A stretch of DNA of 64,000 bases from Bacteroidaceae bacterium (GTDB lineage Bacteria; Bacteroidota; Bacteroidia; Bacteroidales; Bacteroidaceae), in contig JAFSKK010000058.1 in the NCBI GenBank assembly GCA_017448965.1, forward strand, positions 961 through 64,960. The letters are read 5' to 3'. Of the stretch, positions 3,901 through 63,874 are shown piece by piece. A program made the position numbers and the translations under genes. Each line of letters opens with the position of its first letter. Position 1 is the stretch's first letter. Below the pieces are notes generated by a model. The model worked only from the letters and a program-made list of their open reading frames with translations, made no database searches and was not told where the DNA came from.

Positions 3901-3910
3901 AACTCATAGG

Positions 3911-3980
3911 ACTAGTCAAACTAGCCATTCTAGTCAAACTAGATATACTAGGGAAACTAGATATACTAGGGAAACTAGTT
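3911..3980. repeat. ACTAG-rich tandem repeats (18-bp unit ACTAGATATACTAGGGAA x2, plus two ACTAGTCAAACTAG copies)
   Basis: Perfect 18-bp tandem duplication at 3938-3955 and 3956-3973. Related 14-mers lie at 3911 and 3930. Confidence 0.8.
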
Positions 3981-4019
3981 TCAATTAGTACATTTCATTC
4001 AATTCTTACATATATTCTC

Positions 4020-4067
4020 GTGCCGACCATCCAGAAGTGATTCTAACCGCGTCGGCACATCTTTTTT
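4020..4067 (+). terminator. candidate gyrB terminator
   Basis: GTGCCGAC / GTCGGCAC stem with a 23-nt loop, followed by T6. Confidence 0.45.
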
Positions 4068-4107
4068 CTCATCCTCAGACCCACCCTTGAGGTAAATAAA
4101 GGACAAC

Positions 4108-4151
4108 AAAAAAAGGCTGGCTACGCTTCGCAAGCATAGCCAGCCTTTTTT
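4108..4151. terminator. bidirectional terminator between convergent gyrB and ftsZ
   Basis: A7-GGCTGGCTA...TAGCCAGCC-T6 hairpin flanked by an A-run and a T-run. Confidence 0.7.
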
Positions 4152-4168
4152 GTTGATGAGGATGAGTA

Positions 4169-5482
4169 TCAACTGAAAAGAATTGTTGCTCCTGGTTCCA
4201 ACACGTTCGACTTATTGGAACCCATATCTGTGAGTTGACGCAATGTCTCTTTTGAACGTTTGTAAGTAGGCGATGTCTCCACCATGCTGATGACATCTTC
4301 GTTGTCGAGGTCTTCCTCTTTGAAGATATAACTATAGATGGGACGACGGATGATGCTGTGGTTCTTGTCAGGACCATAGATGGTTTCGCGACGATGTGCA
4401 CGTTCAGCCTCCAGTTCCGCTTTCTCTGCATCACGCTGCTGCTGCTCCTTATCACGGGCCATCAGACGGTTACCAAGTTCATCAGAGTCGATGTCCTCCA
4501 CACCGAAGCCTGTGGCAAGAATGGTAATCTTCACCTGATCAGTCAACGACGGGTCAACAGAAAGACCCCACTTGGTCTCGACATCATCGCGCTTCACCTT
4601 GGCCATAAACTCATGCACCTCGTTCATCTCGTCCATCATCAGAGCGCTATTACCCTCTCCTGCCTCATCAGGCACGGAGATACGGATAAGTATCTTGTTG
4701 GCACGATAGATGTCGTTGTTGTTGAGCAATGGGGAATTCAAAGCATCGCTGATACCCTTCGTAACGCGGTTTTCGCCCGAACCATAACCCGTACTCATGA
4801 TGGCCACACCACCATCTTTCAACACTGTGCTGACATCGTTGAAGTCGAGGTTGATGATACCATGCATGGTGATGATTTCCGCGATAGAACGTGCCGCATT
4901 GCAAAGCGTGTCGTCTGCCTTTGCGAAGGCCTTGATGACGGTAAAGTCCTGATAAATCTCACGCAGACGCTCATTGTTGATAACAAGCAAAGCATCCACA
5001 TTCTTGCTCATCTCCTCCACACCGTCGAGTGCCTGGTCAATCTTCTTGTTACCCTCCCAACGGAATGGAATGGTCACAATACCCACGGTGAGGATGCCCA
5101 TGTCCTTGGCCGTCTTGGCAATGAGTGGTGCGGCACCAGTACCAGTTCCGCCACCCATACCAGCCGTAATGAAGGCCATCTTCGTTCCATCGGAAAGCAT
5201 GCTCTTGATTTCCTCGATAGACTCTTCTGTGGCCTTACGTGCACGGTCAGGACGGTTGCCCGCTCCAAGACCTTCACTACCCAGCTGAATCTTTTCTGGT
5301 ACAGGAGAGTCCTGCAACGCCTTGTTATCCGTGTTACACACGACGAACGTAACATCGTGGATACCTTCATTGTACATGTGGTTGACTGCATTGCTACCGC
5401 CGCCGCCAACACCAATCACCTTAATGATGCTTGTGGTGCCCTTTGTAAAGTTGAAAACACCAATATTATCGTCTTCTGCCAT
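4169..5482 (-). CDS. ftsZ: cell division protein FtsZ
   Basis: 437 aa with the tubulin signature GGGTGTGAAP and N-terminal IKVIGVGGGGSNAVN. Confidence 0.97.
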   Translation of the reverse strand: MAEDDNIGVFNFTKGTTSIIKVIGVGGGGSNAVNHMYNEGIHDVTFVVCNTDNKALQDSPVPEKIQLGSEGLGAGNRPDRARKATEESIEEIKSMLSDGTKMAFITAGMGGGTGTGAAPLIAKTAKDMGILTVGIVTIPFRWEGNKKIDQALDGVEEMSKNVDALLVINNERLREIYQDFTVIKAFAKADDTLCNAARSIAEIITMHGIINLDFNDVSTVLKDGGVAIMSTGYGSGENRVTKGISDALNSPLLNNNDIYRANKILIRISVPDEAGEGNSALMMDEMNEVHEFMAKVKRDDVETKWGLSVDPSLTDQVKITILATGFGVEDIDSDELGNRLMARDKEQQQRDAEKAELEAERAHRRETIYGPDKNHSIIRRPIYSYIFKEEDLDNEDVISMVETSPTYKRSKETLRQLTDMGSNKSNVLEPGATILFS

Positions 5483-5505: not shown

Positions 5506-7131
5506 TTATTGATCGTCACTCACAAGGTCATTAAGCGTACGCTTGATACGTCCCCAAGCGCTGTTTTCCTTGTTTGCATGATTCACATTCTCCGTCAGTT
5601 CATCAACAGCATCCTTGAGCAGGTTGGCAAGATCTGCGCCTTCTTTGAGGCTCTGCTTGAACTTATCCTTCCCTTGCAAGGCTGCAACAGCCTTTTCGTA
5701 CTTCTCGCCTATCGTTTCATCGAGAATGGCCAACGAAAGTTCTTTCGCATTCTGACGAACCTTCTTGTCACTACCATATTTCCTCAACTCATCGTTCTGC
5801 TTTTTGACCTTGTCAATTGCATTACGAATCTCTGTCTTCACGTTATCGAAAGCGATGGCATCCTGTGCCTCAGCTGCTGCTGCTGCATCAGCCTCTTCAC
5901 GAAGACGGCGACGCTCCTCTTCCTTCTGTTGCTGGTCAAACATGTCGGGAACACGGTCAAAGGTCTCACCGCCACAAGGAACTGTGCCTGCAAGCAACAG
6001 GGAAACAATGGTTGCCGACTGTGCACTGTCAAGCACAATGTTGGAGGCATTGGAAGTCTTCACCACCATTTGGTTCACCTTGGTGGCCACACGTACCTTA
6101 TCAATCTTTGTGCCCTTCACAAAGGCCTTCACAATGTTCTTCATGCTGCTGCCACCACCTGTGATAACCAACCCTGCCAGAAGTTTTCCGCTATAGTCAG
6201 AGTTAATAATCTGATTGCTGACATTAGCAATAATCTCGTTCATACGCGCCTCAGCCACATTCTTGATCGTTGCGATGTCTATCTGTCGACCATCTGACGT
6301 CGTGTAGAACTGTGGATCAGCCTCCTCAGACATGTCGGTGTCTTGGCAGGCATCCCCATACTTCAGCTTCACATCCTCCGTCTCAGCATCATCAATGGGC
6401 AAGGTGGCAAGGTCTTTGTTGATGTTGCTACATCCCAGTGGAATGGTGACAAGATAGCGAACAATGTTGTTTTTGTAAACCACCAGCGTAGTGGTGTCAG
6501 CGCCCAGGTCAACAAGCGCACAACCAGAACGCTTCTCTGCATCTGTCAAAACGTTGTTGGCCAACTGAAGCGGAGAAATCAATCCCTCAGCAATCGCCAC
6601 TCCTGCGTTAGCAAAGACCGTCTCGATGTTCGTGCGGAGATTCGACTTGGCTATCACATCCAGGAACTCACCTTCGATGTTCGTACCCATCACACCTACA
6701 GGATCAGCAATGATACTGGAATCCACCACATACTCCTGCGGGAAGTTCTCCAGCACTTCATAATCATTGAAAGGAATCTCGTAACTCTCCTGACGGATAG
6801 CGTCAATCGCCTCGTTGGTGATGTAACTCTGCGTGAGCAGGTTCCGTTTGATAACGCACTTGTAAGAACGTACCGACTGACCGCCCAAGCCAACATAAGC
6901 ACGAGAAATCTTGGTCTTGAGTACAGCCTCAAGTTTCGCGATGATGTTGTTGACACTCTGGTAGGTCTTCTCAATGTTGTAGACAACACCACGCTTCACA
7001 CACCCTACCGTTTTCTCTTCTGCATAGGCGAGAATTTGCATCGTGCCATCCTTTTTCTTGCCTGCGATGCCCGAAATCTTGGACGAGCCAAGTTCCACCG
7101 CAACAATGAACTCTTTATCTGAATTGGCCAT
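5506..7131 (-). CDS. ftsA: cell division protein FtsA (long charged C-terminal extension)
   Basis: 541 aa with an actin-like ATPase N-terminus (VELGSSKISGIAG, DLGADTTT, VITGGGS). It sits between ftsQ and ftsZ. Confidence 0.92.
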   Translation of the reverse strand: MANSDKEFIVAVELGSSKISGIAGKKKDGTMQILAYAEEKTVGCVKRGVVYNIEKTYQSVNNIIAKLEAVLKTKISRAYVGLGGQSVRSYKCVIKRNLLTQSYITNEAIDAIRQESYEIPFNDYEVLENFPQEYVVDSSIIADPVGVMGTNIEGEFLDVIAKSNLRTNIETVFANAGVAIAEGLISPLQLANNVLTDAEKRSGCALVDLGADTTTLVVYKNNIVRYLVTIPLGCSNINKDLATLPIDDAETEDVKLKYGDACQDTDMSEEADPQFYTTSDGRQIDIATIKNVAEARMNEIIANVSNQIINSDYSGKLLAGLVITGGGSSMKNIVKAFVKGTKIDKVRVATKVNQMVVKTSNASNIVLDSAQSATIVSLLLAGTVPCGGETFDRVPDMFDQQQKEEERRRLREEADAAAAAEAQDAIAFDNVKTEIRNAIDKVKKQNDELRKYGSDKKVRQNAKELSLAILDETIGEKYEKAVAALQGKDKFKQSLKEGADLANLLKDAVDELTENVNHANKENSAWGRIKRTLNDLVSDDQ

Positions 7132-53180: not shown

Positions 53181-55481
53181 CTATACCTTCCCACCGATTT
53201 TCTGTTTGTATTCAGGCGTCTTGCAGAAGCGTCCGCAAACATCATCATAGGCAATGTATCCTCGGTTCTGCCATACTCGCAGGGTGCTTTCACCGTCACC
53301 TTTACGACCTTGCTGCTGGCGCATCTGGTGGTACTGCTCACGGGTGAACTCATCAGGCAGCAACTCCAGCAGGTTCTGAGGTCCCGACTGACGCTGAATC
53401 TCCACTTCCTCGCGAAGTTCACGTTCCAGTTGCTGACCGAAGTAGAGCATCTTGCACCAGAGATTGTACGACTGGCTCCAGCGGACGAAATCGGCAATCT
53501 CGTGCGACCACTTGTAGCCGTGAGCCACGTAGAGCACCATTCCCTTCAGCCAGGCAATCACGTTGGCACGATAGCTCAAAACTCGGTAGGCTTCGCTCTC
53601 ATACAGTCGGGCGGCGTCCTTGTTCTCCTGCTTCATGTCGAGCGACAGACGCTTGGCTTGCTGACATTCTATCAGCCCGTTGGCAGCCTCCAGACGGTCG
53701 ATATAGGGCTTCAGCTCATTGGCAAACAGATGGTCGTAGATGCCCAGGATAGGTGCCGTGTCATCGTCGTCATCTGAATGGATGATGGTGCTGATGTCGA
53801 GTCGGCTCACCGTGCCGTCATTGACCATTCGTGCAAAAAACTTCCTGGCATTGGGAGGGGTCGTCGAGGCGTTAAAATTCCATCTCAGAGGGGCAATTCC
53901 CGACACCGAATCCGCACCTACACGCTCCTGCCCTGCATCGGAGTTGTCAAACGCTTTTCTGATCAGCAACCCCACCTCATCGACCGTTCCCTTCGAGGTC
54001 ACCTTCTTCAAGGCCTCAATCTCGTCCACGATGGTGTAGATGAAACGCTGGCCGTTGTTGTGGGCATCGATGATGCGCTGGTTGAAGACCGCATCTGTCA
54101 GGTTGTCGATGAGCATCTGGATGCAGATGTCTGTCGGACGCGGGGCTTTCTTCTGCTTCGCACCCGGATTCTTCTGCTTCCAATCGGCCTCGCGCTGGCG
54201 GTTGGGGATGTCGCGCTGCTTGATGTCCTCCATGATGTACTCGATGGGCTTCTTGATGGTGCCCTTGCCGATACTCTGACGGCCAATCAAGACATTCATG
54301 AAGGTTGCCTCATGCTCCACGTTGTCCCAGTAGCGGAACTTCACGCCGTGCAGGTGAACACCCAGTGCTGGGAACACCGCATTAGCTACAGCAGGCTTGT
54401 AGAACCAGGGGACGTTCTTCGTCAGCAACTTCACCAGTGGCGGCAACTTCTTCGGCATCGGAGGAGGTGTGGTGAGCGTACCGCCACAAGCCTTCACACC
54501 TGCCTGCGACTTCAATGCCTGCAACACCTGCTTCAATCGGTACGGCATACCCTTCTTCGGCTCCTTCAGCGCGTTCTCGATGGTCTTGCGCCATTCGGCC
54601 ACATCCTCCTGGTTCTGGGTTCCCCAATAGTTCGGAATGATCTGCATCATCTTCTCCAACGAATATCCGCAGATGCTTCTCAGCGTCACAGCCAGCTCGA
54701 ACGTCAGCACATTGCGGTCGCCATCCACAGGCTCCTTGCCGTCGTTGAACAGCTCCCAATACTTCTGAATGATGTCCTTAAACAGCATCCCGTTGTACCT
54801 CGCGTCAGGGTCATAGGGAACCGATGTCAGAGGGCTGATGTTTGATGTCTGAGAGACAGCCTTTTCGGAACTGTAACACTGTAACACTGTAACATTTTCT
54901 GTTTCTCTCATCTCCACAGGTGTTGTATCAAAAATCTCGTCGTCCAGAAACAGCAACTCATCGTCATCAGCAGTCGTTGTGAAGAACACCCTCGTGATGT
55001 CCTTGGCACCCTCGTCGAACTTCACGCCCAGCACGTCGCTTGCCCACCGCAGGTTCTCCTCCTGTGAGAGGTCCTCATGGCGACGGAACACCAGATGGTA
55101 GCCCTTCGATGCCGAACGCTCCAGCATGAGCAACCCCAATGCCTCCCGTTTTTCCATCACGAGTTCTGGCACACACTTCATCTTCTCTTCCATCCAAGCC
55201 TTCTTTTCCTCCTCCGAAAGCCCTGCGGGAGCCACGAAGTCGATATCCATGCCCACCGAACGCGATGCCGTCTTGCACCCCTTCAGGGCACCATCCTCGC
55301 CGGGGATGCACGAGTAGTTCATCTGAATGAGCCGATGCTTCTGCCGGGTGTCGCCCTCTCTCACCGTCTTCAGAATTGCCTTCTGTTTCTCACTGCCACG
55401 CAGACGCAGATACTCGTCTCGTGAGAGGACGGGGCGCATCACCTTCGCCCCATCCTGATATGTTACAAAATATACACTCAT
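53181..55481 (-). CDS. VirE/BT4734-like primase-helicase-type protein
   Basis: 766 aa. The N-terminal roughly 190 aa follow the BT4734/VirE_N pattern (...REGDTRQKHRLIQMNYSC...SRSVGMDIDF). The central region has a P-loop-like LIGRQSIGKGT resembling VirE/D5 NTPases. Confidence 0.5.
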   Translation of the reverse strand: MSVYFVTYQDGAKVMRPVLSRDEYLRLRGSEKQKAILKTVREGDTRQKHRLIQMNYSCIPGEDGALKGCKTASRSVGMDIDFVAPAGLSEEEKKAWMEEKMKCVPELVMEKREALGLLMLERSASKGYHLVFRRHEDLSQEENLRWASDVLGVKFDEGAKDITRVFFTTTADDDELLFLDDEIFDTTPVEMRETENVTVLQCYSSEKAVSQTSNISPLTSVPYDPDARYNGMLFKDIIQKYWELFNDGKEPVDGDRNVLTFELAVTLRSICGYSLEKMMQIIPNYWGTQNQEDVAEWRKTIENALKEPKKGMPYRLKQVLQALKSQAGVKACGGTLTTPPPMPKKLPPLVKLLTKNVPWFYKPAVANAVFPALGVHLHGVKFRYWDNVEHEATFMNVLIGRQSIGKGTIKKPIEYIMEDIKQRDIPNRQREADWKQKNPGAKQKKAPRPTDICIQMLIDNLTDAVFNQRIIDAHNNGQRFIYTIVDEIEALKKVTSKGTVDEVGLLIRKAFDNSDAGQERVGADSVSGIAPLRWNFNASTTPPNARKFFARMVNDGTVSRLDISTIIHSDDDDDTAPILGIYDHLFANELKPYIDRLEAANGLIECQQAKRLSLDMKQENKDAARLYESEAYRVLSYRANVIAWLKGMVLYVAHGYKWSHEIADFVRWSQSYNLWCKMLYFGQQLERELREEVEIQRQSGPQNLLELLPDEFTREQYHQMRQQQGRKGDGESTLRVWQNRGYIAYDDVCGRFCKTPEYKQKIGGKV
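54859..54894. repeat. ACTGTAAC octamer-triplet repeat, copy A (inside the primase-like gene)
   Basis: GCCTTTTCGGAACTGTAACACTGTAACACTGTAACA. It encodes the linker VTVLQCYS and matches 61343-61380 in the same orientation. Confidence 0.9.
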
Positions 55482-55505: not shown

Positions 55506-55889
55506 TTACCACTGAGTCTCCGTGCGTCTCGTCTTGATGAACGCTGCCTGTTCCTCCGCTTCCTCCCGATGCAATGCCTCGATGAGAGCCTTGCCCAGTT
55601 TCTTGGGGAATCGCAGCAGGAAAATCACGCTCTCCTGCGTCTCCTTCACCTCGCCATGTGCAGTCGTGAAGAGCCTTGTGTAGCGGCTTCCGCTGTCCTT
55701 CGCATACGGGTGAAAATGGCTTGTTCCCGATTCGTCGGTCACCATCCGTCCCTTCTGACTTGCTTCGTTACCTCCCACCACGATGTGCTGTCCCAACTCG
55801 AACGCACAAGGAAAGATGTTGATGCCACCGTTCTGGCAGAAAACTGTCTGTGTCTCCATCTGGAGATTGTTAATGAAAATGTTGTTCAT
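55506..55889 (-). CDS. hypothetical protein
   Basis: 127-aa ORF, 24 nt upstream of the primase-like gene on the same strand. No recognised domain. Confidence 0.45.
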   Translation of the reverse strand: MNNIFINNLQMETQTVFCQNGGINIFPCAFELGQHIVVGGNEASQKGRMVTDESGTSHFHPYAKDSGSRYTRLFTTAHGEVKETQESVIFLLRFPKKLGKALIEALHREEAEEQAAFIKTRRTETQW

Positions 55890-56166: not shown

Positions 56167-57015
56167 TCAGTCGTTTTGGGGTAGATTTTCCAATAGTTCA
56201 TCAAAATAATCCTGTATGTCCGATTTGTTTCGTTTATATGCGGCATTCAATAATTGTCCCACATTCGTTTCCTTTTTATTGAAAGCATACCGCATAATTT
56301 GTTTAATGGTCTTTTCTTTGTTTTTTACAGGTTTGCCTTTTCTGTCAACAAACCATTTTGCTTTATACATACAATCGAGCACCACAAGCATGGATGTTTC
56401 TTTGCCATCCGCTATTTTCAAATCAGCGGTTTCAACTCTGGGAGAAGAATCCAGAAGAGACACCTTACCATTGTCCACAGCATTTTCAACCATCTCTTCA
56501 ATCGTATCAGACAAAAACACATCACTCTGTATGTATTCTATAACAACGGCTCTCAATTTCTCTTCGCCTAAACGATAGACATTAGGCATGAATGTATTCC
56601 TCAATTCTTCCATACAGGCATCATGCTCATCCATCTGTTCCATTAGGCACAAAGCAAGGGTGTTATGTAAAGACTTTTTTGTCACAATCAGACACATGGA
56701 AACACAATACATCACCACATTCACAGCAAGAGCCAGTTCCTTTTCTTCTGTTCCATCATCTGACAGATCTCTAAAATCATTGTACATTCTGTCCCAAAGA
56801 TTTCCCATGTTGAAAACAGCCTTGCTCTCATCTTCCTTGATGTCATCAAGAACGGCAAGACACTCCATAAAAACCTCCTCTGCAGAAAGGCGGAACTTTG
56901 CCATCTTTCTACAGAAATGCTCGCAGGGATTCTTCAGGGAAAGATAGATGACATGCTCGCCATATTCATTTCTGACCGCCTCTCTTGCGCTTCTTCTTAG
57001 TCGGTTCCTCATCAT
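56167..57015 (-). CDS. hypothetical protein (operon gene 5, no recognisable domain)
   Basis: 282-aa ORF that overlaps gene 4 by 50 nt. An alternative ATG at 56904 (MAKFRL, 246 aa) would leave a 61-nt gap. No P-loop or nuclease motif seen. Confidence 0.55.
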   Translation of the reverse strand: MMRNRLRRSAREAVRNEYGEHVIYLSLKNPCEHFCRKMAKFRLSAEEVFMECLAVLDDIKEDESKAVFNMGNLWDRMYNDFRDLSDDGTEEKELALAVNVVMYCVSMCLIVTKKSLHNTLALCLMEQMDEHDACMEELRNTFMPNVYRLGEEKLRAVVIEYIQSDVFLSDTIEEMVENAVDNGKVSLLDSSPRVETADLKIADGKETSMLVVLDCMYKAKWFVDRKGKPVKNKEKTIKQIMRYAFNKKETNVGQLLNAAYKRNKSDIQDYFDELLENLPQND

Positions 57016-57940
57016 TGTATGTTTCTGTTATATGCCTCACGCTTTCCAACCATTGCATGATGGAAAAATCCCCTCTGTCCGTTTTCGTTCCAAAGGAAGT
57101 TTGACCAGAGATAAATTCCTTCAACATTTCGTCGCCCAAAGTCACCATGGCCTTCGTCTCCTGCCCGTGACGATACACTCCATACATGCGGAAATGCACG
57201 GCAATGTTATATCCGTTGTCACAACACAAATTCACCATCTGAGCCATATCTTCCTGTGTCCTGTCCAAATGCAAAGTGCCATCCTTCGATGCCTCAAAAT
57301 GCATTCCTGCTTTCTTCGCCCTGAAAGCCTTAGCCAAATAGTGCATCATCTCCAGACGTTTCTGCACATCGTCTGGGTCATCGACCGATTTCACCTTTTC
57401 GGAATCGGGGAAATCAAACACCACCTTCCTGACGGTATCGCCAAATTCCGTCTGCTTGCCGACTGCATCCCAGAAATCCTCGGCATTCATCTTGGCCTTC
57501 AACTCAAGGTGAATCCCGTAGTCATGTTCCAAAGTGCTGTTGAAAGATTCCTGCAAGATGTCACGCACCTTGTCGGGCTTGCTGTCGAAAGCCGCAGAAC
57601 GCTCGATGGCAATCAAACCGACATCAGCACGGTTATAAACCAACACATAACAGCCTGGCTGAGCCTTTTCCGTCAGTTCCTCATGCTTCTTGGGAATTTT
57701 CACATTCTTCTCATTGCAGACAAATAGAGCCATTGCGTCCCCATACTTCCGTTCCACATCACATTCCAGCGGCACCTGTTCACCCTTCCTGTTCGTCTTG
57801 CACACCTTCACATTGCCTCCAACAAACAGTGTGGAGAAATATTCATGCGCCTTGTCAATGGTCTTCACACCATCCTTGCCAAACACATCTTTCTGTCCAG
57901 CCTGTTCAAAATGAATTTTGTAAATTGCAAATACCGCCAT
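56966..57940 (-). CDS. hypothetical protein (operon gene 4, no recognisable domain, basic KKKRKRGGQK tail)
   Basis: 324-aa ORF starting 4 nt after the stop of the HpaII-family gene. No known motif recognised. Confidence 0.6.
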   Translation of the reverse strand: MAVFAIYKIHFEQAGQKDVFGKDGVKTIDKAHEYFSTLFVGGNVKVCKTNRKGEQVPLECDVERKYGDAMALFVCNEKNVKIPKKHEELTEKAQPGCYVLVYNRADVGLIAIERSAAFDSKPDKVRDILQESFNSTLEHDYGIHLELKAKMNAEDFWDAVGKQTEFGDTVRKVVFDFPDSEKVKSVDDPDDVQKRLEMMHYLAKAFRAKKAGMHFEASKDGTLHLDRTQEDMAQMVNLCCDNGYNIAVHFRMYGVYRHGQETKAMVTLGDEMLKEFISGQTSFGTKTDRGDFSIMQWLESVRHITETYNDEEPTKKKRKRGGQK

Positions 57941-57944
57941 ATAC

Positions 57945-59027
57945 CTATTTCTTAAACCTTATCTGCAAGTTCAACTTAATATATACCTCACCGTCTTCTC
58001 CTCGATACAAAGCCCCGAAATGGTAACGGCTGCGACTCGCGCGCTCAAAACGCGTATTATTATATAAATAATCTTCCACTTCGTTCCGATTGTAAAAATG
58101 ATAGCAAACGATGTCGCCATCCTTTTTCACAACCAAATAGCCACCATTGGCATCATAACGTCCAGTCCATTCCTTTGCCGGTGTCATACCTAGAGCAGCA
58201 TCTAGCAAAAGTACTTTCATCTTGTGCTCATAAAAAGTATAGACATTCTTTCCTGTAAATCCAAAGGGATTCTGTTTTGCCACCAGTTCTACTGCTTCTT
58301 TGATAGAAGATGTGGATGCTGGCATACTGTCGCAAATCAGACACATTGCAATGAATTCAGGCATACATAAATCGAGAAAAAGCAGATTATTCTTGAAAGT
58401 TTGATGTTCTATGTCTGAATACATCAACTGTAATCCCTTATCTTGGATTTTCTTCATCCTCGGAAGATGGTCTTCTATCGCATTAACTTCCCGTATCTCA
58501 TCGTCCGTTATCTGTCCTCCCTCTACACGATAGCGAATATTCGTTGTTTCTCCAGCATTGAGCAGAGTTGAAGCACTCCCCAATTGTGACTTTATGCTGA
58601 AACCAAGCAAGGGAGTCATATTTGTGCGTAAATCGTGGATAACAATGTGGATGTCCGCTTTGTCTTTCGAAGGGGCTTTCAGTTTTGTACACCCAATTTG
58701 GTTCATGAAACACTCTGTAGCGGGAATTGCAAAAGCACTTTTACTCCCTGCCTTTATCTCGTCAAGCAAGTTGGCTGATTCTTTCATGAACTTATCCATT
58801 GACACACGAACAAACTCTTTGCCATCTTCATCCACCACAACTATGTTCTGCTCACTGCAAGGCTTGTACTCATATTTTTTACTTTCTTCACGAATCACAT
58901 TCAAGATGGGATAATATAATTCCAACTTGTTAAGATTCTCGTCTCCAGCATGGACTTTTCCTTCTCCGAGGAGTCGGAACAATGTGTAAATCTCACTCCA
59001 TTCTCCTTTATTTCCTGTCAATGACAT
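57945..59027 (-). CDS. HpaII-family type II restriction endonuclease (putative)
   Basis: 360 aa. The N-terminal GNKGEWSEIYTLFRLLGEGK motif and the size match my memory of the RE_HpaII family. It also has a PD...SxK-like site (DIHIVIHD...GFSIKSQ) and sits next to a C5-MTase. Confidence 0.55.
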   Translation of the reverse strand: MSLTGNKGEWSEIYTLFRLLGEGKVHAGDENLNKLELYYPILNVIREESKKYEYKPCSEQNIVVVDEDGKEFVRVSMDKFMKESANLLDEIKAGSKSAFAIPATECFMNQIGCTKLKAPSKDKADIHIVIHDLRTNMTPLLGFSIKSQLGSASTLLNAGETTNIRYRVEGGQITDDEIREVNAIEDHLPRMKKIQDKGLQLMYSDIEHQTFKNNLLFLDLCMPEFIAMCLICDSMPASTSSIKEAVELVAKQNPFGFTGKNVYTFYEHKMKVLLLDAALGMTPAKEWTGRYDANGGYLVVKKDGDIVCYHFYNRNEVEDYLYNNTRFERASRSRYHFGALYRGEDGEVYIKLNLQIRFKK

Positions 59028-59075
59028 ATCTTTCCATCCTATTTTCTAAGAGTTATGACTAATTTATCGTTATGG

Positions 59076-59714
59076 CTACTGGAATTTGTCCATTTTCTTA
59101 TCCTTTGGGGTAGGATGAATGTTTACCAGATTTCCCTCCACAACATCAATCTTTGTAGACTCGCAGAACTTCATACTTTTCAATTTTGTGACGAGTTCAT
59201 CTATCTGTTTTGTGTTACAATCAATCACATCATCAAGACCGATAAGCAGACCTTCCGGGATTTTGGCTTTTGTGGCCCTTGCTTCTTGGGCATCCAATGT
59301 CAACAGATAACTTTGTGCCTTGCGATGAACATATTTCAATGCAATGGCTTCAAGGTCAGCCTGCTTGTATCTTTCACGAAGGCTTGTCTTTAGGGATAGA
59401 CATACAGGCCGTTCTTTCGAATAAAGAATGGTGTCAAACTCTATATTGGGAACAAAAGCCACTTTTGCCTGTGTGTAAAACGGCAGGATTCCCTCACGGT
59501 ATAGAAGAGTGTATATCACTAATTCGAAATAACCTCCCCCAATTGAATTGTTTTTATTTTCACATGCTTGATATTTGTCCCAATAAAATTTCACGTATTC
59601 ATGGGGATAAGTGTATTTGACATCGCAAAATGTCTCATTGGGAGTCATACTCTCAAAGAGTTTTGAGATTTCACCTTCATTTTTGATAAAACCGTTTTCT
59701 AATAGTACCGACAT
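59076..59714 (-). CDS. small PD-(D/E)XK nuclease with the SxK-x3-RER signature of CCGG-family restriction enzymes (putative)
   Basis: 212 aa from MSVLLENG (ATG at 59714, 11 nt after the MTase stop). Motif: EFD-x14-SLK-TSL-RER. The ORF-track start at 59870 would overlap the MTase by 145 nt. Confidence 0.5.
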   Translation of the reverse strand: MSVLLENGFIKNEGEISKLFESMTPNETFCDVKYTYPHEYVKFYWDKYQACENKNNSIGGGYFELVIYTLLYREGILPFYTQAKVAFVPNIEFDTILYSKERPVCLSLKTSLRERYKQADLEAIALKYVHRKAQSYLLTLDAQEARATKAKIPEGLLIGLDDVIDCNTKQIDELVTKLKSMKFCESTKIDVVEGNLVNIHPTPKDKKMDKFQ

Positions 59715-59725
59715 AACCTTTGTGT

Positions 59726-61042
59726 TTATAAAATCCCTAACATTTGTAATTCTCTCTCCGCTGTTGCTTGTATAGCTGGAATAGCCACAGAATTGCCAAA
59801 CTGCTTGTAAGCAGAAGCATCGGCCACAACAATTCTGAATCTGTCGGGAAATCCCTGCAATCTGGCCCATTCACGGGGAGTCATTTTACGAATTCCGTCA
59901 CGATTAACCTCGCCCTTGATATGAGTCTCTGGTACATAATTAGTCAGACGATTATCCACCACCAAATTGCACTCTCTCCCCATTCCTCCAACAACAATAG
60001 CATTTGCCACTCCATCAATATCAATAATCTTGTATCCAAAACCATGCCCAGCCGCTTCATGTCGTGCGCGATGACGTTTCAAAGTTTCAATATACACTGT
60101 AGAAAGATAATATTTCACCGAAACCTCGTGTTCTTCCATCACATCACGGAAACGTGGGCGTAATGCGCCAGGTGTAGTAGGCTCCGGATAACGAAATTCA
60201 TCAATGGCAACATGCAAGTCCTTTCTGAAACCAATGATATAAATACGTTCACGATGCTGAGGCACCCCAAAATCCATCGCGTTCAAAATCCGAGGAGGTA
60301 CAACATCATATCCTGCATCATCCAAATGCTCAAGGATTGTCCTCAGCGTTCTGCCTTTGTCATGAATGGCCAATCCTTTCACATTTTCAAGAAAGAAAGC
60401 CCTCGGCTGATGCTTCCGCAAAATATCTTCAATCTCAAAAAACAGCGTTCCCCTAGTCTCATCCTTAAAGCCGAGCCTTCTGCCAGCCAAAGAAAACGCC
60501 TGACAAGGAAAGCCAGCACAAAGGATGTCAAAATGCTCTGGAATATACTTTTTCGTGATGTCCTTCGTGATGTCACCAAAGGGCATCTCCCCATAGTTGG
60601 CAAAATATGACTCCTGTGCCTTTGCGTCAAATTCCGAAGAATACACGCACTTGCCACCCAGATTCTGCATGGCGATACGAAAACCTCCAATGCCTGCAAA
60701 CAAATCAATGAAAGTGAACTTAGGGTGCTCGGGAGCAGGGAATGGAACATCGAAGAAATCGTTGAACAAATCATATTGCAAAGGGTCTTCTGCCACATGC
60801 CACACATCCTCGTCAGAAGCCACATCCACAACATCCTGCCGCACATGTTTCCTTGCCAAAAAGTCACGGACAGCTTCTACAATCTCTCCACGCTCAGCAT
60901 CAGTCCCCCCATTATGCAGATACTGGCTCAGCACCGCCATCTGCGTTTCATAGGACAATTCTCCATACACCTTCATGCCCGTTGCCTCATCCACCTCTTC
61001 AGGGAAATCCGTCAATTTTATGTTTTCTTTCTTCTTTGCCAT
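59726..61042 (-). CDS. DNA (cytosine-5)-methyltransferase with about 100-aa N-terminal extension
   Basis: Motif I FIDLFAGIGGF, motif IV GFPCQAFS, motif VI ENVKGL, motif VIII QHRERIYI, motif X QFGNSVAIP. Confidence 0.93.
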   Translation of the reverse strand: MAKKKENIKLTDFPEEVDEATGMKVYGELSYETQMAVLSQYLHNGGTDAERGEIVEAVRDFLARKHVRQDVVDVASDEDVWHVAEDPLQYDLFNDFFDVPFPAPEHPKFTFIDLFAGIGGFRIAMQNLGGKCVYSSEFDAKAQESYFANYGEMPFGDITKDITKKYIPEHFDILCAGFPCQAFSLAGRRLGFKDETRGTLFFEIEDILRKHQPRAFFLENVKGLAIHDKGRTLRTILEHLDDAGYDVVPPRILNAMDFGVPQHRERIYIIGFRKDLHVAIDEFRYPEPTTPGALRPRFRDVMEEHEVSVKYYLSTVYIETLKRHRARHEAAGHGFGYKIIDIDGVANAIVVGGMGRECNLVVDNRLTNYVPETHIKGEVNRDGIRKMTPREWARLQGFPDRFRIVVADASAYKQFGNSVAIPAIQATAERELQMLGIL

Positions 61043-61073: not shown

Positions 61074-61158
61074 CAATTTTTCTGTGAGATTTAGAAGAAA
61101 GCCCACAGAAAATATAAATTATTTAATAGAAACGCTTGGGCTTTTGTTTGCAAATGTC

Positions 61159-61223
61159 TATCTTTGCATCGGGATTCCCCGAAGTCCCTGCTTTCGCATA
61201 CTTCGGGGTTAGTGTTTTATTTT
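61159..61223 (+). ncRNA. candidate tiny transcript: -7 box TATCTTTG, 9-bp hairpin, U-rich tail
   Basis: -7 box at 61159-61166. Hairpin CCCCGAAGT (61177-85) / ACTTCGGGG (61200-08), followed by TTAGTGTTTTATTTT. Confidence 0.3.
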
Positions 61224-61235
61224 GAGTAAGGCAAC

Positions 61236-61270
61236 ACCGTGTTACAGCGTTACAGTGTTACAGTTCCAAA
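61236..61270. repeat. ACTGTAAC octamer-triplet repeat, copy B (inverted)
   Basis: CACCGTGTTACAGCGTTACAGTGTTACAGTTCC is the reverse complement of GGAACTGTAACACTGTAACGCTGTAACACGGTG. Confidence 0.9.
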
Positions 61271-61342
61271 AACAATCATGGAAGGCAAAAATAAACTCTA
61301 TATTTATATATAAATATAGAAGTATATTTAGGGGTTTGGAAA

Positions 61343-61380
61343 GGCCTTTCGGGAACTGTAACACTGTAACAAGTGTAACA
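61343..61380. repeat. ACTGTAAC octamer-triplet repeat, copy C
   Basis: GGCCTTTCGGGAACTGTAACACTGTAACAAGTGTAACA. With copy B it forms an inverted pair around an 85-bp AT-rich spacer containing CTATATTTATATATAAATATAG. Confidence 0.9.
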
Positions 61381-61468
61381 GATTGCGGTCAACTTCTTCA
61401 GTACAATTTTTTTTCAAATCGTTGAAACTTTTTTGGGGAAATATTCGTAGACCGCACTCTGGATGTTG

Positions 61469-61476: not shown

Positions 61477-61688
61477 CATCGTCGAAAATGAGAGGGGCGC
61501 GGAGACGGTGTGCAGGGGGAAGGGTGCACGGCATGCACGGGGAAGCCTGCACGGCACACGCGGAGAGGCGGTGACGGGGTGAGCGATGGAGTGAGAATGG
61601 TTGGATGTGTGGAGTGAGAATGGGTTCGAAAATGTTGTTTAATCAGAAAAAGGAATTTAATCAGAAAAACGGAAAGGAGGACGGAAAG

Positions 61689-62189
61689 ATGAAGATACGG
61701 ATGTCGAGGTATTATGGCGACGGGAGCGTGACGAAGTCGGTCATGCGGATTGAGAGCGAGCGGGGCGGTTTCGAGCCGATGGAGTGCGAGGCGCGGGAGA
61801 TGGCTTTCAAGGTGTACACGGAGAAGTTCAGGGGCAGCAGCGGGTATTGTGTGCCGGAGGGGACTTACACGATGCAGCCGAGGTGCACGGAGTTTGGGGT
61901 GATGACGCTGCGCACGAAGGACATGAGGGGGCATGCGAACGTGAGCATCGGATGGAGCTGGACGAGGCAGACGAAGCATGACACCATTCTGGTGGGATGG
62001 AGCGACGGGAGCCAGGCGGCTGAGGTGAGGCGCATCACGGGGAGCAGGGAGTGCTTCGACGAGCTGACGAAGAGGGTGTATGCGGCTTGGGCGGATGGCG
62101 AGGAGTTCACGCTGGAGATTGTGAATGAAGACCCTCTCTGTCCTGACGGACATCTCCCCCATAATGGGGAGACCATGCGGAATGTTTAA
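61689..62189 (+). CDS. hypothetical protein, possibly DUF5675-like (phage L,D-peptidase-like fold)
   Basis: 166 aa from MKIRMSRYYG. It loosely matches the pattern T.S...IE....F...E......G.CVPEGTY.......F.......T.....H..V.IG.......T.ILVG. It has strongly G-ending codons, and its last roughly 18 codons are encoded by a family B repeat fragment. Confidence 0.4.
   Translation: MKIRMSRYYGDGSVTKSVMRIESERGGFEPMECEAREMAFKVYTEKFRGSSGYCVPEGTYTMQPRCTEFGVMTLRTKDMRGHANVSIGWSWTRQTKHDTILVGWSDGSQAAEVRRITGSRECFDELTKRVYAAWADGEEFTLEIVNEDPLCPDGHLPHNGETMRNV
62130..62180. repeat. partial family B element (half copy of the etfB/etfA insert)
   Basis: GACCCTCTCTGTCCTGACGGACATCTCCCCCATAATGGGGAGACCATGCGG compared with the reverse complement of 28723-28773, GACCCTCTCTGTCCTTCGGACATCTCCCCCGTAATGGGGAGAGCCATCCGG. 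Confidence 0.8.
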
Positions 62190-62275
62190 AAGGAAAAATA
62201 TATGTTGTTGCAACGGCTATATAAGTGTTTAAAAATGAATGTCTAACAAGTTTTAAAAAGAAAGGAGAAACGATT

Positions 62276-62713
62276 ATGTCTATTGTAGTTCGAAAGACGA
62301 AGATGAAGCTCACTTATCGTGAGGGAAAGCCCGAGGTGTACAAGATGCGCCAGCTGACTTACCAGCCGCTCACGTTCGAGCAGTTGCTGTCGGAGATTCA
62401 GGTGGTGGGTGTGAATCCCGCGCAGACGCAGGCGGTGGTGACTGCCTTGCTGAACCGAATGGTGCAGTATCTGAACCTCGGCCACGCGGTGCAGCTCGAC
62501 AACTTCGGCACCTTCAAGGTGTGCACCAAGTGGAAGGTGGCTCACACGCTGGAGGAGTGTACGGCTGACACGAACGTGGTGAAGAACCTCCGCTTCTACC
62601 CCTGCAAGGCGCTGCAGACGTTGCTGCGCGAGCAGACCATCAAGGTGAACGAGGCGGTGTCGGAGCAGGAGCCTGACAGCGGCGGTGGCGACGATGACGG
62701 CGACGGTGAGTAA
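62276..62713 (+). CDS. Bacteroidales HU-related DNA-binding protein with acidic tail
   Basis: 145 aa from MSIVVRKTKMKL, with AAGGAG 9 nt upstream. The pattern ...LTFEQLLSEI......QTQAVVTALLNRMVQYLNLGHAVQLDNFGTFKV matches the HU_rel family. Confidence 0.75.
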   Translation: MSIVVRKTKMKLTYREGKPEVYKMRQLTYQPLTFEQLLSEIQVVGVNPAQTQAVVTALLNRMVQYLNLGHAVQLDNFGTFKVCTKWKVAHTLEECTADTNVVKNLRFYPCKALQTLLREQTIKVNEAVSEQEPDSGGGDDDGDGE

Positions 62714-62791: not shown

Positions 62792-63874
62792 TTAGTGGCG
62801 CTGTCTTCTGACAGACACACGGGGAGCGCCGCCACCGCTGGATGCACCACCTCCCGACTTTCCCTTCTTGCCCGAAGAGGCGGAGGAACCACGGCGGCTG
62901 GTGCGTGCGGCTGATGAGGAGGCTTTATCGGCAACGGACTTGCTCTTCTTGCCCTTGACCGATGCTGCGGCGATGGAGTCGCGACGTGCCTGCTCGACGG
63001 AATCGACGGGAGTGCTCCAGATGTGCTCTTCGAAGTCGGTGATCTGCTTCTCGATGCGGTTCTGCTCCTTCTTCAGCAGGGAGTCGGTGGCGCAGTATTG
63101 CTGGAGCGACTTGTTCTGCATGTTGGTAGTCATGTAGATTTCGCCCTTGTAGTGGTTGGTGGAGAAGAAATCATCCATCGACATGCGAGCTGCATTGTTG
63201 AGGTTGCTGGTCATCACTTCCTGGCCGCTGAGATAGGTCTTGACATCGTCGTATTTCACCCAGAAGAGAGGACGCTTCTGCACGTTGTCGGAGTAGGAGA
63301 ACTCGTCGGCTGCACGATGCAGCACAGGGCAAAGCGCCACGATGCGGCTATGGTAGGTGGCCGTGTTCTGGTCGTAGTAGCTGCTTTCCTTCACATAGTA
63401 ACTGAGCACTTCGGAAGAGGGTATGTCGCTCTGAGCCACCTTGATGCTGTTGCCATCCACCTCGTAGAAGATGTCCTGACGCTCCAACAAGTCCTTGAAG
63501 TGCATGCGGTTGCTCTGCTGGAAGTTTTCCACACCATCCAACTGATACTCGTAGGCAGGGATTTTGCCCGTGTTGAGCAGCTTGAACAGCAACGTGAACA
63601 GGTTCATGTTGCCGCCTTGTGGCTCGACGGGATAGTAGAGTGCCGCGTTCTCGTCCTTGGTCAGGTCGATGGAGCGGTAGATGTCGCGTCGCCAACTGGG
63701 GTCTTCAGGCACATCGACTGCCGTGGGGAACATGAGACTGGCTCTGTCGTTTCCTGTCGCACCTGTCTTCTTCGCAGCCGTTGTCTTTGTGTTCTGCACT
63801 CGGCTCTTCTGTGGCTGGGCAACCATCGTGCCAACCATGCAGAATGATAATAATATGAATAAAACCTTTTTCAT
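62792..63874 (-). CDS. gldN: T9SS/gliding motility protein GldN (PorN)
   Basis: 360 aa with a signal peptide. Has the pattern PSWRRDIYRSIDL...NAALYYP...NLFTLLFKLL..GKIPAYEY, a low-complexity C-terminus, and directly follows the gldM end. Confidence 0.85.
   Translation of the reverse strand: MKKVLFILLSFCMVGTMVAQPQKSRVQNTKTTAAKKTGATGNDRASLMFPTAVDVPEDPSWRRDIYRSIDLTKDENAALYYPVEPQGGNMNLFTLLFKLLNTGKIPAYEYQLDGVENFQQSNRMHFKDLLERQDIFYEVDGNSIKVAQSDIPSSEVLSYYVKESSYYDQNTATYHSRIVALCPVLHRAADEFSYSDNVQKRPLFWVKYDDVKTYLSGQEVMTSNLNNAARMSMDDFFSTNHYKGEIYMTTNMQNKSLQQYCATDSLLKKEQNRIEKQITDFEEHIWSTPVDSVEQARRDSIAAASVKGKKSKSVADKASSSAARTSRRGSSASSGKKGKSGGGASSGGGAPRVSVRRQRH

Follow-up and report, generated by a model that had tools for sequence, protein, structure and literature searches.

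The question raised by this locus is what a very small, putative second restriction gene does beside a methyltransferase gene and a full-length restriction gene. The locus lies in a 64,000-nucleotide stretch of a Bacteroidaceae genome assembly (contig JAFSKK010000058.1; hereafter the window), where three intact genes follow one another in the order C5 cytosine DNA methyltransferase, small gene, HpaII-family restriction endonuclease. The cluster thus holds one methyltransferase gene and two restriction genes, with 11 nt between the methyltransferase stop and the small gene and 48 nt between the small gene and the HpaII start. A first-pass annotation, made from the letters of the window alone, had noticed a K-x3-RER signature in the 212-amino-acid (aa) product of the small gene and had proposed a miniature nuclease of the CCGG group; its assignment of the neighbouring 360-aa gene to the HpaII family was borne out by an end-to-end profile match (Table 1). 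Based on the comparative and modelling data presented here, the small protein is probably a Type IIP restriction enzyme of minimal size that reads a CCGG core and would share the methyltransferase with the HpaII-family enzyme; this activity is predicted from sequence and modelled structure.

The small-protein family and its methyltransferase partner

The open frame around the small gene reaches back to position 59870. Position 59714 is the likely start, since relatives begin at the MS.L methionine, and the resulting protein runs from an N-terminal MSVLLENG to a C-terminal MDKFQ. The motif string reads VPNIEFD(94)-TILYSKERPVCL-S(107)LK(109)-TSL-R(113)E(114)R(115)-YKQ. The string had been quoted correctly at first pass, but the spacing given with it, D-x14-SLK, was wrong: 12 residues lie between D94 and S107, and 14 between D94 and K109. 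The layout of the protein is therefore E64...D94-x14-K109-x3-R113-E114-R115-x6-E122.

A family alignment of 112 members, down to approximately 28% identity with the window protein, was inspected for conservation. D94 was invariant, and G60, F63, E64, P78, S107, K109, R113, E114, R115, K117, Q118, L121, E122 and V129 were each conserved in at least 90% of members. Since these residues are near-invariant across relatives this distant, the motif is not a chance one, and the frame that had been singled out for it is real. Homologues at E <= 1e-3 formed 2215 clusters (90% identity) in a collection of 5.8 billion proteins, and an exhaustive profile search of 1.84 billion representatives gave 430 clusters at 50% identity, nearly all of 190-220 aa. 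The homologues listed ranged from 137 to 222 aa, mostly 196-201 aa, so that the short length is typical of the family. The remark at first pass that 212 aa is shorter than the known members of the CCGG group also held, BsaWI and Kpn2I having 272-303 aa and an NgoMIV homologue 286 aa.

In a scan of one genome per species, the family was found in 321 species. The hosts were mostly Bacteroidota (Prevotellaceae, other gut and rumen Bacteroidales, Flavobacterium and Chitinophaga), with Proteobacteria, Verrucomicrobia, Firmicutes and Cyanobacteria making up a minor part. The few clusters that bore any name were called 'hypothetical protein'. No model for the small protein was present in NCBIfam, PADLOC or PHROGs, and no Pfam model scored above threshold. 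A family member with an intact motif (CISAKTTLRERYKQSDFES) was also encoded at 3941-4606 of locus L164, part of a 636-kb uncultured phage (LR756504.1), where it comes after two paralogous genes of 544 and 575 aa with no assigned function.

The conservation data bear on the possibility that the window gene is an inactive or decaying relic, or encodes a non-catalytic DNA-binding protein, and that HpaII is the sole working nuclease. Two nucleases with one methyltransferase are unusual, the defence-system models detect HpaII only, and locus L013 (see below) shows that copies catalytically dead by sequence can persist. However, when 81 small proteins were compared over the 66 columns conserved in at least 90% of them, the window copy departed at two columns only (L23M and V91I), and all its predicted catalytic and recognition residues were intact. 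The full motif was kept in all 15 HpaII-linked copies, the exact 212-aa protein was present on 22 contigs, and contigs assembled from four gut RNA sequencing runs covered the gene. A relic is accordingly given very little credence. The RNA contigs spanned the methyltransferase, the small gene and HpaII at a depth of 2-5 and bridged both the methyltransferase/small junction (59660-59982) and the small/HpaII junction (59005-59173). These data fit a single transcript for the three genes, given that they are strandless and DNA carry-over is possible. A scan for sigma-70 promoters and terminators, which has no model of the Bacteroidota promoter types, gave matches at shuffle level only, and Rfam and tRNA scans of 52-64 kb found nothing.

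The gene neighbourhood was then compared across the 80 best genome loci of the family. A homologue of the window methyltransferase lay directly upstream of the small gene, on the same strand, in 80 of the 80 loci. These homologues were 52-89% identical to the window enzyme (55-80% where most of the gene matched) and were typically separated from the small gene by 6-90 nt. An HpaII homologue was found downstream in 15 of the 80; elsewhere the flanks were unrelated housekeeping genes (ribonucleotide reductase, PurL, a MiaB-like radical-SAM enzyme, histidine phosphatase, ABC transporter). Of 80 distant metagenome loci, with 31-48% identity to a remote family member, 61 had an upstream same-strand open reading frame (ORF) for a C5 methyltransferase, of two subfamilies. 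A 13-kb plasmid of Desemzia incerta and an 18-kb plasmid of Bacillus subtilis each carried overlapping genes for a 318-aa C5 methyltransferase and a 200-aa 'hypothetical protein' beside rep. In one family representative, P0233, an N4/N6 methyltransferase (SPPY motif) was fused to the small nuclease.

The distribution of HpaII was different. In a neighbour-joining tree of the small proteins, the HpaII-positive loci fell into at least four clades and were interspersed with HpaII-negative ones, and the HpaII genes ranged from 35% to 80% identity. The 22 contigs with the exact small protein had a constant order of gldL-M-N, HU-HIG, a 271-aa gene, methyltransferase, small gene, HpaII, and genes of 324, 282, 127, 766 and 168 aa. 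An 87%-identical relative (P0001) had the corresponding island without HpaII, in the order methyltransferase, small gene, 323, 279, 127 and 758 aa. The DNA similarity to this sister island (L177) extended from 61045, at the methyltransferase start, to 59140 at 86%, then broke off and resumed at the 127-aa gene; the breakpoint falls directly after the conserved end of the small protein. The window copy has approximately 14 extra C-terminal residues past the usual family end ...GNLV(K), and these are located beyond a recombination breakpoint at approximately 59140. A gut-metagenome contig from run X11 was approximately 99.7% identical over the methyltransferase and the small gene, diverged at 59140 and had no HpaII, while relative P0002 had genes of 420 and 141 aa in the variable slot. 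HpaII is thus a separable add-on to the pair. From the 80 of 80 against 15 of 80 loci and the HpaII-free sister island, the conserved pair is the methyltransferase and the small nuclease, and the small nuclease, not HpaII, is the regular partner of the methyltransferase. Judged by its sequence context, the pair behaves as a minimal two-gene Type II restriction-modification module. The arrangement suggested at first pass, one methyltransferase with two nucleases, fits these comparative data, and we infer activity for both nucleases.

The same counts apply to the idea that the small protein serves the HpaII-type enzyme as an accessory subunit or regulator. In the window the two genes adjoin and seem to be transcribed together, and the order of small gene then HpaII is kept in 15 loci across phyla. 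Against this, approximately 80% of the loci have no HpaII gene and the sister island has the methyltransferase and small gene without it. In Flavobacterium psychrophilum, the locus tag of an HpaII-family gene adjoins that of the methyltransferase with no annotated small gene between them, and deletion of the HpaII-family gene lifts a DNA-transfer barrier (PMC11837570). An accessory role is therefore extremely improbable, and a heteromeric partner of HpaII was ruled out by the approximately 80% of loci lacking HpaII. A regulatory (C-protein) role was rejected as well, as the small protein has no helix-turn-helix and its catalytic residues are invariant.

Predicted fold, active site and target site

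The CCGG family is defined by a PD-(D/E)XK fold with a permuted active site, PD-x21-53-K-x12-13-E, and by an R-(D/E)-R triad that opens the helix following the catalytic Lys and reads CC:GG from the major groove (PMC4652773, PMC6344858). The K-x3-RER and K-x12-E spacings of the small protein agree with this definition; the residue preceding D94 is Phe, not the Pro of the published PD motif. In Pfam, RE_BsaWI was matched by 106 of the 112 family members at E <= 1 (best 3.9e-8) and by nine at E <= 1e-5, a level reached by no other Pfam family. EcoRII-C was matched by 20 members, and these two were the sole recurrent matches. They were also the sole Pfam matches of the window protein itself, with E 9e-4 and 19.7 bits over residues 104-149 for RE_BsaWI, and E 0.056, below threshold, for EcoRII-C. 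The small protein did not match the RE_HpaII profile (PF09561), nor the Vsr profile (PF03852) at E <= 1. In a single-sequence hhalign run that was itself not significant, SLKTSLRE-RYKQADLEA was aligned with SAKWTIRSDRAQNSRTEA of the NgoMIV homologue, a pairing that, as read from the sequences, is the textbook correspondence, with the extra Ser of NgoMIV falling inside the triad.

The AlphaFold model of the small protein (predicted local distance difference test score 85, predicted template modelling (TM)-score 0.85) showed helix 56-73, strands 79-85, 92-97 and 104-108, helix 115-129 and strand 134-139, an alpha-beta-beta-beta-alpha-beta core of the PD-(D/E)XK type. In the model, E64 sits on helix 56-73, D94 on strand 92-97, K109 at the end of strand 104-108 and RER where helix 115-129 begins. 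Foldseek matches to nucleases were led by PD-(D/E)XK enzymes (Can2, Cdn1, OkrAI, Kpn2I, BsaWI, BbvCI and BamHI), and unrelated folds were also found at similar, non-significant E-values. The top TM-score was obtained with Kpn2I, 0.49 over 227 columns, at a non-significant E of 0.099; the E-value for BsaWI was 0.16. Although Can2 and Cdn1 led the matches, a CRISPR-ancillary function was rejected, as they share the generic PD-(D/E)XK fold and the small protein has no CARF domain and no such context. Taken together, the motif, the profile matches and the predicted fold provide good support for the CCGG-family membership that had been read from the signature, with no significant pairwise match for the window sequence.

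By analogy with solved members, E64, D94, K109 and E122 would form a permuted Mg2+ active site, and R113-E114-R115, at the N-terminus of helix 115-129, would enter the major groove and read one CC:GG half-site. Two subunits on a CCGG-containing palindrome would then cut both strands, probably before the first C to leave a 4-nt 5' overhang. The 212-aa protein would in this way be a miniature PD-(D/E)XK endonuclease cognate to the C5 methyltransferase encoded 11 nt upstream, and the two genes would constitute a Type II restriction-modification module. C5 methylation of CCGG by the neighbouring enzyme would block cleavage. The HpaII-family enzyme (C/CGG) would have been added downstream in the window and in approximately one-fifth of related loci, relying on the common methyltransferase.

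The methyltransferase must protect CCGG, as it stands in one operon with a full-length HpaII-family enzyme. In the window, CCGG was the third most depleted 4-bp palindrome, with 45 occurrences observed against 156 expected (ratio 0.29). From the shared HpaII enzyme and this depletion, we infer CCGG as the methyltransferase specificity. The RER triad, and the need for the partner methyltransferase to protect its sites, suggest that the small nuclease also reads CCGG. The most depleted 4-bp palindrome was GATC (47 observed against 298 expected, ratio 0.16), and AGCT (0.42) and GGCC (0.54) were also depleted, which hints at further restriction systems in the organism.

Several points weigh against a CCGG-family restriction enzyme, in addition to three loci with damaged methyltransferases that are described below. 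Profile searching and structure prediction, both proposed as checks at first pass, gave divided results. The RE_BsaWI profile was matched family-wise, but the 19.7 bits of the window protein lie below the gathering threshold of 26.2; the expected core was predicted, with Kpn2I at the top by TM-score, but Foldseek against the PDB gave no match at E <= 1e-3. Sequence searches of the PDB with the single protein and with a 25-sequence profile returned chance matches only. An hhalign comparison of the 112-member profile with an NgoMIV-family profile gave a non-significant probability of 0.15, the NgoMIV alignment being of low diversity (18 sequences, all at least 70% identical). With 14 residues, the D-to-K spacing falls short of the published range of 21-53. 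The phage homologue in L164 has no adjacent methyltransferase, the presence in one operon of two nucleases with overlapping specificity seems redundant, and biochemical data on any family member were not found in the literature.

Loci with damaged methyltransferases

In two loci, L013 and L017, an HNH-endonuclease gene replaces the C-terminal half or two-thirds of the methyltransferase. The N-terminal remnant ends before the catalytic Pro-Cys motif in L013 and stops five residues past it (GFPCH) in L017. Among the 81 small proteins compared, those of L013 and L017 had the most deviations at the 66 conserved columns. G60 was altered in these two only (G60S and G60D), and the predicted catalytic E64 in L013 only (E64K); L017 had seven further changes in the strand before D94. 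Random placement of two G60 variants among the 81 would put both in L013 and L017 once in 3240. L013 differed from its sister L015 at 44 of 195 positions, yet at only two of the 66 conserved columns (G60 and E64), so the fold appears to be still constrained while the active-site helix has been hit. As far as sequences can tell, a nuclease that is lethal in the absence of its methyltransferase would be expected to leave such a pattern.

Three loci do not follow this pattern, and count among the points against the restriction-enzyme reading. In L001, only the C-terminal 191 aa of the methyltransferase are left, yet the small gene is intact and keeps every key residue; the sole other methyltransferase nearby is of the NgoMIV type. 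A 1.1-kb insertion splits the methyltransferase of L067 and L075, again with an intact small gene. A second methyltransferase that protects the DNA might account for these exceptions, as might a methyltransferase that still works when split, or a small nuclease of narrower specificity. L001 contains, in order, an NgoMIV-family restriction gene (9-986), a different C5 methyltransferase (928-1788; 30% identity), the truncated methyltransferase (1788-2363) and the intact small nuclease (2360-2962). By sequence, it is an instance of a second kind of CCGG-core nuclease at the module. In L067, the split falls between motif VIII and the target-recognition domain and gives ORFs of 301 aa (3608-4513) and 141 aa (5537-5962). 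M.AquI is split at that place and is functional as two chains. By analogy, the split methyltransferase of L067 may work as a two-chain enzyme.

A further reading is a methyltransferase-partnered PD-(D/E)XK restriction nuclease with a longer CCGG-containing site, for example GCCGGC or WCCGGW; the similarity to BsaWI and EcoRII would in that case carry no information on the flanking bases. Solved CCGG-family enzymes, except the CCNGG/CCWGG readers, recognize 6-8 bp; the intact small gene of L001 coexists with only an NgoMIV-type (GCCGGC) methyltransferase; and specificity for a subset of sites would make the HpaII add-on non-redundant. However, at approximately 200 aa, against 272-303 aa, the small protein is without most of the N-terminal and loop readers of the outer base pairs present in BsaWI, NgoMIV and AgeI. 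A longer site is considered unlikely.

A different function was also weighed: a Vsr-like repair nickase, built on the CCGG-family fold and reading a half-site, that nicks beside the T:G mismatches arising by deamination of 5-methylcytosine at the sites of the methyltransferase. Linkage to a C5 methyltransferase wherever the neighbour was readable, with the N4/N6 fusion of P0233 and the solitary phage copy as exceptions, would suit such an enzyme. The small size would allow action as a monomer, and the intact small genes where the methyltransferase is truncated or split (L001, L067, L075) would fit as well. Such a role would further remove the apparent redundancy with HpaII and explain the tolerance of a second, true restriction enzyme in the operon. 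If true, a Vsr analogue would have arisen independently from a restriction-enzyme fold. Canonical Vsr genes, however, adjoin the module of methyltransferase and small gene in at least seven loci (6/67 upstream and 1/44 downstream), where the small protein would duplicate their function. The RER triad is strictly conserved, as in readers of intact CC:GG, in which the Glu contacts N4 of both cytosines. The fusion of one relative to an N4/N6 methyltransferase and the occurrence of the pair on small plasmids argue the same way, as does L013, which keeps its fold positions and loses E64 in what looks like selected inactivation rather than neutral decay. Repair of this kind is regarded as quite improbable, and a Type IIP restriction enzyme with a CCGG core is retained as the favoured reading.

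The HNH-endonuclease gene itself, encoding approximately 252-256 aa, recurs at the module, and its HNH region resembles PDB 6yex, 'HNH endonuclease' (E 7e-8). It stands in place of the C-terminal part of the methyltransferase (L013, L017), inside the methyltransferase (L067, L075), or otherwise just downstream or upstream of the module. The 1.1-kb HNH insertion is bounded by two inverted copies of the Rfam RNA Flavo-1 (RF01705), and three of the four copies scored 58-72 bits against a gathering score of 42. Instead of or besides being a small RNA, Flavo-1 may serve a small mobile element as its terminal inverted repeat.

Setting of the cluster and comparison with known systems

The features of the cluster, and the additional genes and repeats at related loci, are collected in Table 1.

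Table 1. Positions of the features discussed, in the window unless a locus is named
Feature	Position	Strand	Basis and remarks
Putative small nuclease gene	59076..59714	-	212 codons plus stop; ORF and translation, homologues, alignments, AlphaFold model
Conserved family core of the small protein	residues 1 to ~197		
Locus-specific tail of the small protein (NIHPTPKDKKMDKFQ)	last ~14 residues		
Codons S107-E122 (SLKTSLRERYKQADLE)	59349..59396	-	Lys109, R113-E114-R115 and second acidic residue E122 (K+13); each at least 90% conserved in 112 members
Codons E64-D94	59433..59525	-	First catalytic Glu (helix 56-73) and catalytic Asp (strand 92-97); predicted roles
C5 cytosine DNA methyltransferase, 438 aa	59726..61042	-	Pfam DNA_methylase, E 4e-94; TIGR00675; putative cognate enzyme
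HpaII-family restriction endonuclease, 360 aa	57945..59027	-	Pfam RE_HpaII, E 9.9e-132, end to end; PADLOC REase_II
Junction of conserved arm and variable cassette	59028..59140	.	Divergent 3' tail of small gene and 48-nt spacer before HpaII
HNH gene, L013	3946-4707		
HNH gene, L017	5240-5998		
HNH gene, L067	4520-5290		
HNH gene, L075	~2627-3379		
HNH gene, L034	6663-7394		
HNH gene, L091	600-1310		
HNH gene, L050	6597-6866		
HNH gene, L153	2-304		
Flavo-1 copy, L067	4426-4504	-	
Flavo-1 copy, L067	5477-5560	+	
Flavo-1 copy, L075	2521-2599	-	
Flavo-1 copy, L075	3572-3655	+	

Downstream of HpaII in the window, the ORFs of 324 aa (56966-57940, minus strand; 4-nt gap) and 282 aa (56167-57015, minus strand; 50-nt overlap) had no match in Pfam, PADLOC or PHROGs. 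Their counterparts in the sister island were only 45% and 40% identical, against 87-94% for the flanking genes. From these identities, the two ORFs seem to be a two-gene cassette that diverges fast within the island's variable slot. The genes for the 127-aa (55506-55889) and 766-aa (53181-55481) proteins, both on the minus strand, form the conserved right arm of the island, with 83-94% identity in relatives, and no family for either protein was found in Pfam, PADLOC or PHROGs.

On the other side, two stretches upstream of the methyltransferase (61116-61381 and 62052-62285) had a depth of 100-600x in gut metagenomes, compared to approximately 10x around them, with many loose ends. They had no Rfam or tRNA match and are probably repeated elements that mark the island boundary. 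The border also contains a DUF5675-like ORF (61605-62189, plus strand; sub-threshold), for which the alternative gene call is a 271-aa ORF on the opposite strand, an HU-HIG DNA-binding gene (62225-62713, plus strand) and gldN (62792-63874, minus strand). gldN belongs to the gliding/type IX secretion operon. An HU-HIG gene likewise adjoins relatives of the island, in other chromosomal surroundings.

Hundreds of C5 methyltransferases in Bacteroidota and other phyla would at present count as 'orphan', since the partner gene is labelled 'hypothetical protein' and goes unrecognized by Pfam, NCBIfam, PADLOC and PHROGs; if the small protein is a restriction enzyme, they would be parts of complete restriction-modification systems. 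Estimates of restriction barriers would then change for gut and rumen Bacteroidales and for Flavobacteria, in which such barriers block genetic manipulation (PMC11837570). With approximately 200 aa and the shortest Asp-to-Lys spacing in the family, the protein would represent a minimal scaffold with a CC:GG-reading RER helix, and would serve as a reference for how larger members gained their readers of outer base pairs and their tetramerization surfaces. Cleavage at /CCGG would leave a 5' overhang of 4 nt, compared to 2 nt for HpaII and MspI. The pair of methyltransferase and small gene appears as a platform for other nucleases, with HpaII at 15 loci, NgoMIV at one and the HNH gene at eight, and the module illustrates, in polymorphic form, how several nucleases share a methyltransferase.

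Systems of this kind are already known: CCGG-family Type IIP enzymes are well studied, and Eco47II is a precedent for one methyltransferase with two nucleases. The novelty lies in the subfamily, which is the smallest of the group, widespread, invisible to annotation and defence-finding models, a constant partner of an HpaII-type methyltransferase and uncharacterized in the literature found. Among known enzymes, BsaWI (W/CCGGW; PF18643; PDB 4ZSF) was the sole one whose Pfam model was reached at E <= 1e-5. Like the small protein, BsaWI has a continuous R-(D/E)-R three residues past the catalytic Lys (K165 and R169-D170-R171, compared to K109 and R113-E114-R115) and carries its first Glu on the helix before (E92, compared to E64). 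It differs in its 272 aa, in a 69-residue N-terminal helical domain and in acting on two sites as a tetramer. D175 (K+10) is its second acidic residue, whereas the small protein has the canonical Glu at K+13, and its D-to-K spacing is 19 compared to 14.

Ecl18kI, PspGI and EcoRII-C (CCNGG, CCWGG; PF09019) correspond to the second Pfam model, matched by 20 of the 112 members. The K-x3-R-E-R layout with a Glu at K+13 is that of Ecl18kI and EcoRII. The EcoRII triad is K328-D329-R330 (PMC4652773, PMC6344858). Unlike the small protein, enzymes of this group flip the central base pair and have larger N-terminal dimerization regions, with 272-305 aa in all. An interrupted site is unlikely for the small nuclease, because its partner methyltransferase must protect CCGG, HpaII sharing it. 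NgoMIV, Cfr10I and Bse634I (G/CCGGC, R/CCGGY) have a permuted E...PD...SxK...E site and read the major groove by Arg/acid/Arg, much as predicted for the small nuclease; moreover, an NgoMIV homologue adjoins the module in L001 and the motif strings align. Their R-S/P-D-R triad is, however, interrupted by one residue, and they are tetramers of 285-293 aa. Kpn2I (T/CCGGA; PDB 6EKR), the closest by TM-score at a non-significant Foldseek E-value, has 303 aa. AgeI (A/CCGGT) is a CCGG-family monomer that dimerizes on DNA (PMC5389614).

At the level of the whole cluster, FpsJI of F. psychrophilum combines a C5 methyltransferase gene of approximately 1.27 kb with an adjacent HpaII-family nuclease; the methyltransferase protects from HpaII in vitro and the system blocks DNA transfer (PMC11837570). 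Its methyltransferase resembles that of the window in having an HpaII-family neighbour. Unlike the window cluster, FpsJI has no small gene between methyltransferase and nuclease, as judged by consecutive locus tags, so HpaII does not need the small protein. The FpsJI nuclease was also considered as a tested member of the small family and was rejected, since the deletion primers encode HpaII-family termini.

Eco47II is partnered by Eco47I, and their sites, GGNCC and GGWCC, are nested. In the form in which it is cited in PMC3424549, Eco47II (1995, Gene 157:49) is the precedent for two endonucleases with one methyltransferase. The enzymes and sites are others than those described here, and the present arrangement, unlike that of Eco47II, was seen at 15 of the 80 species loci and varies within a single island.

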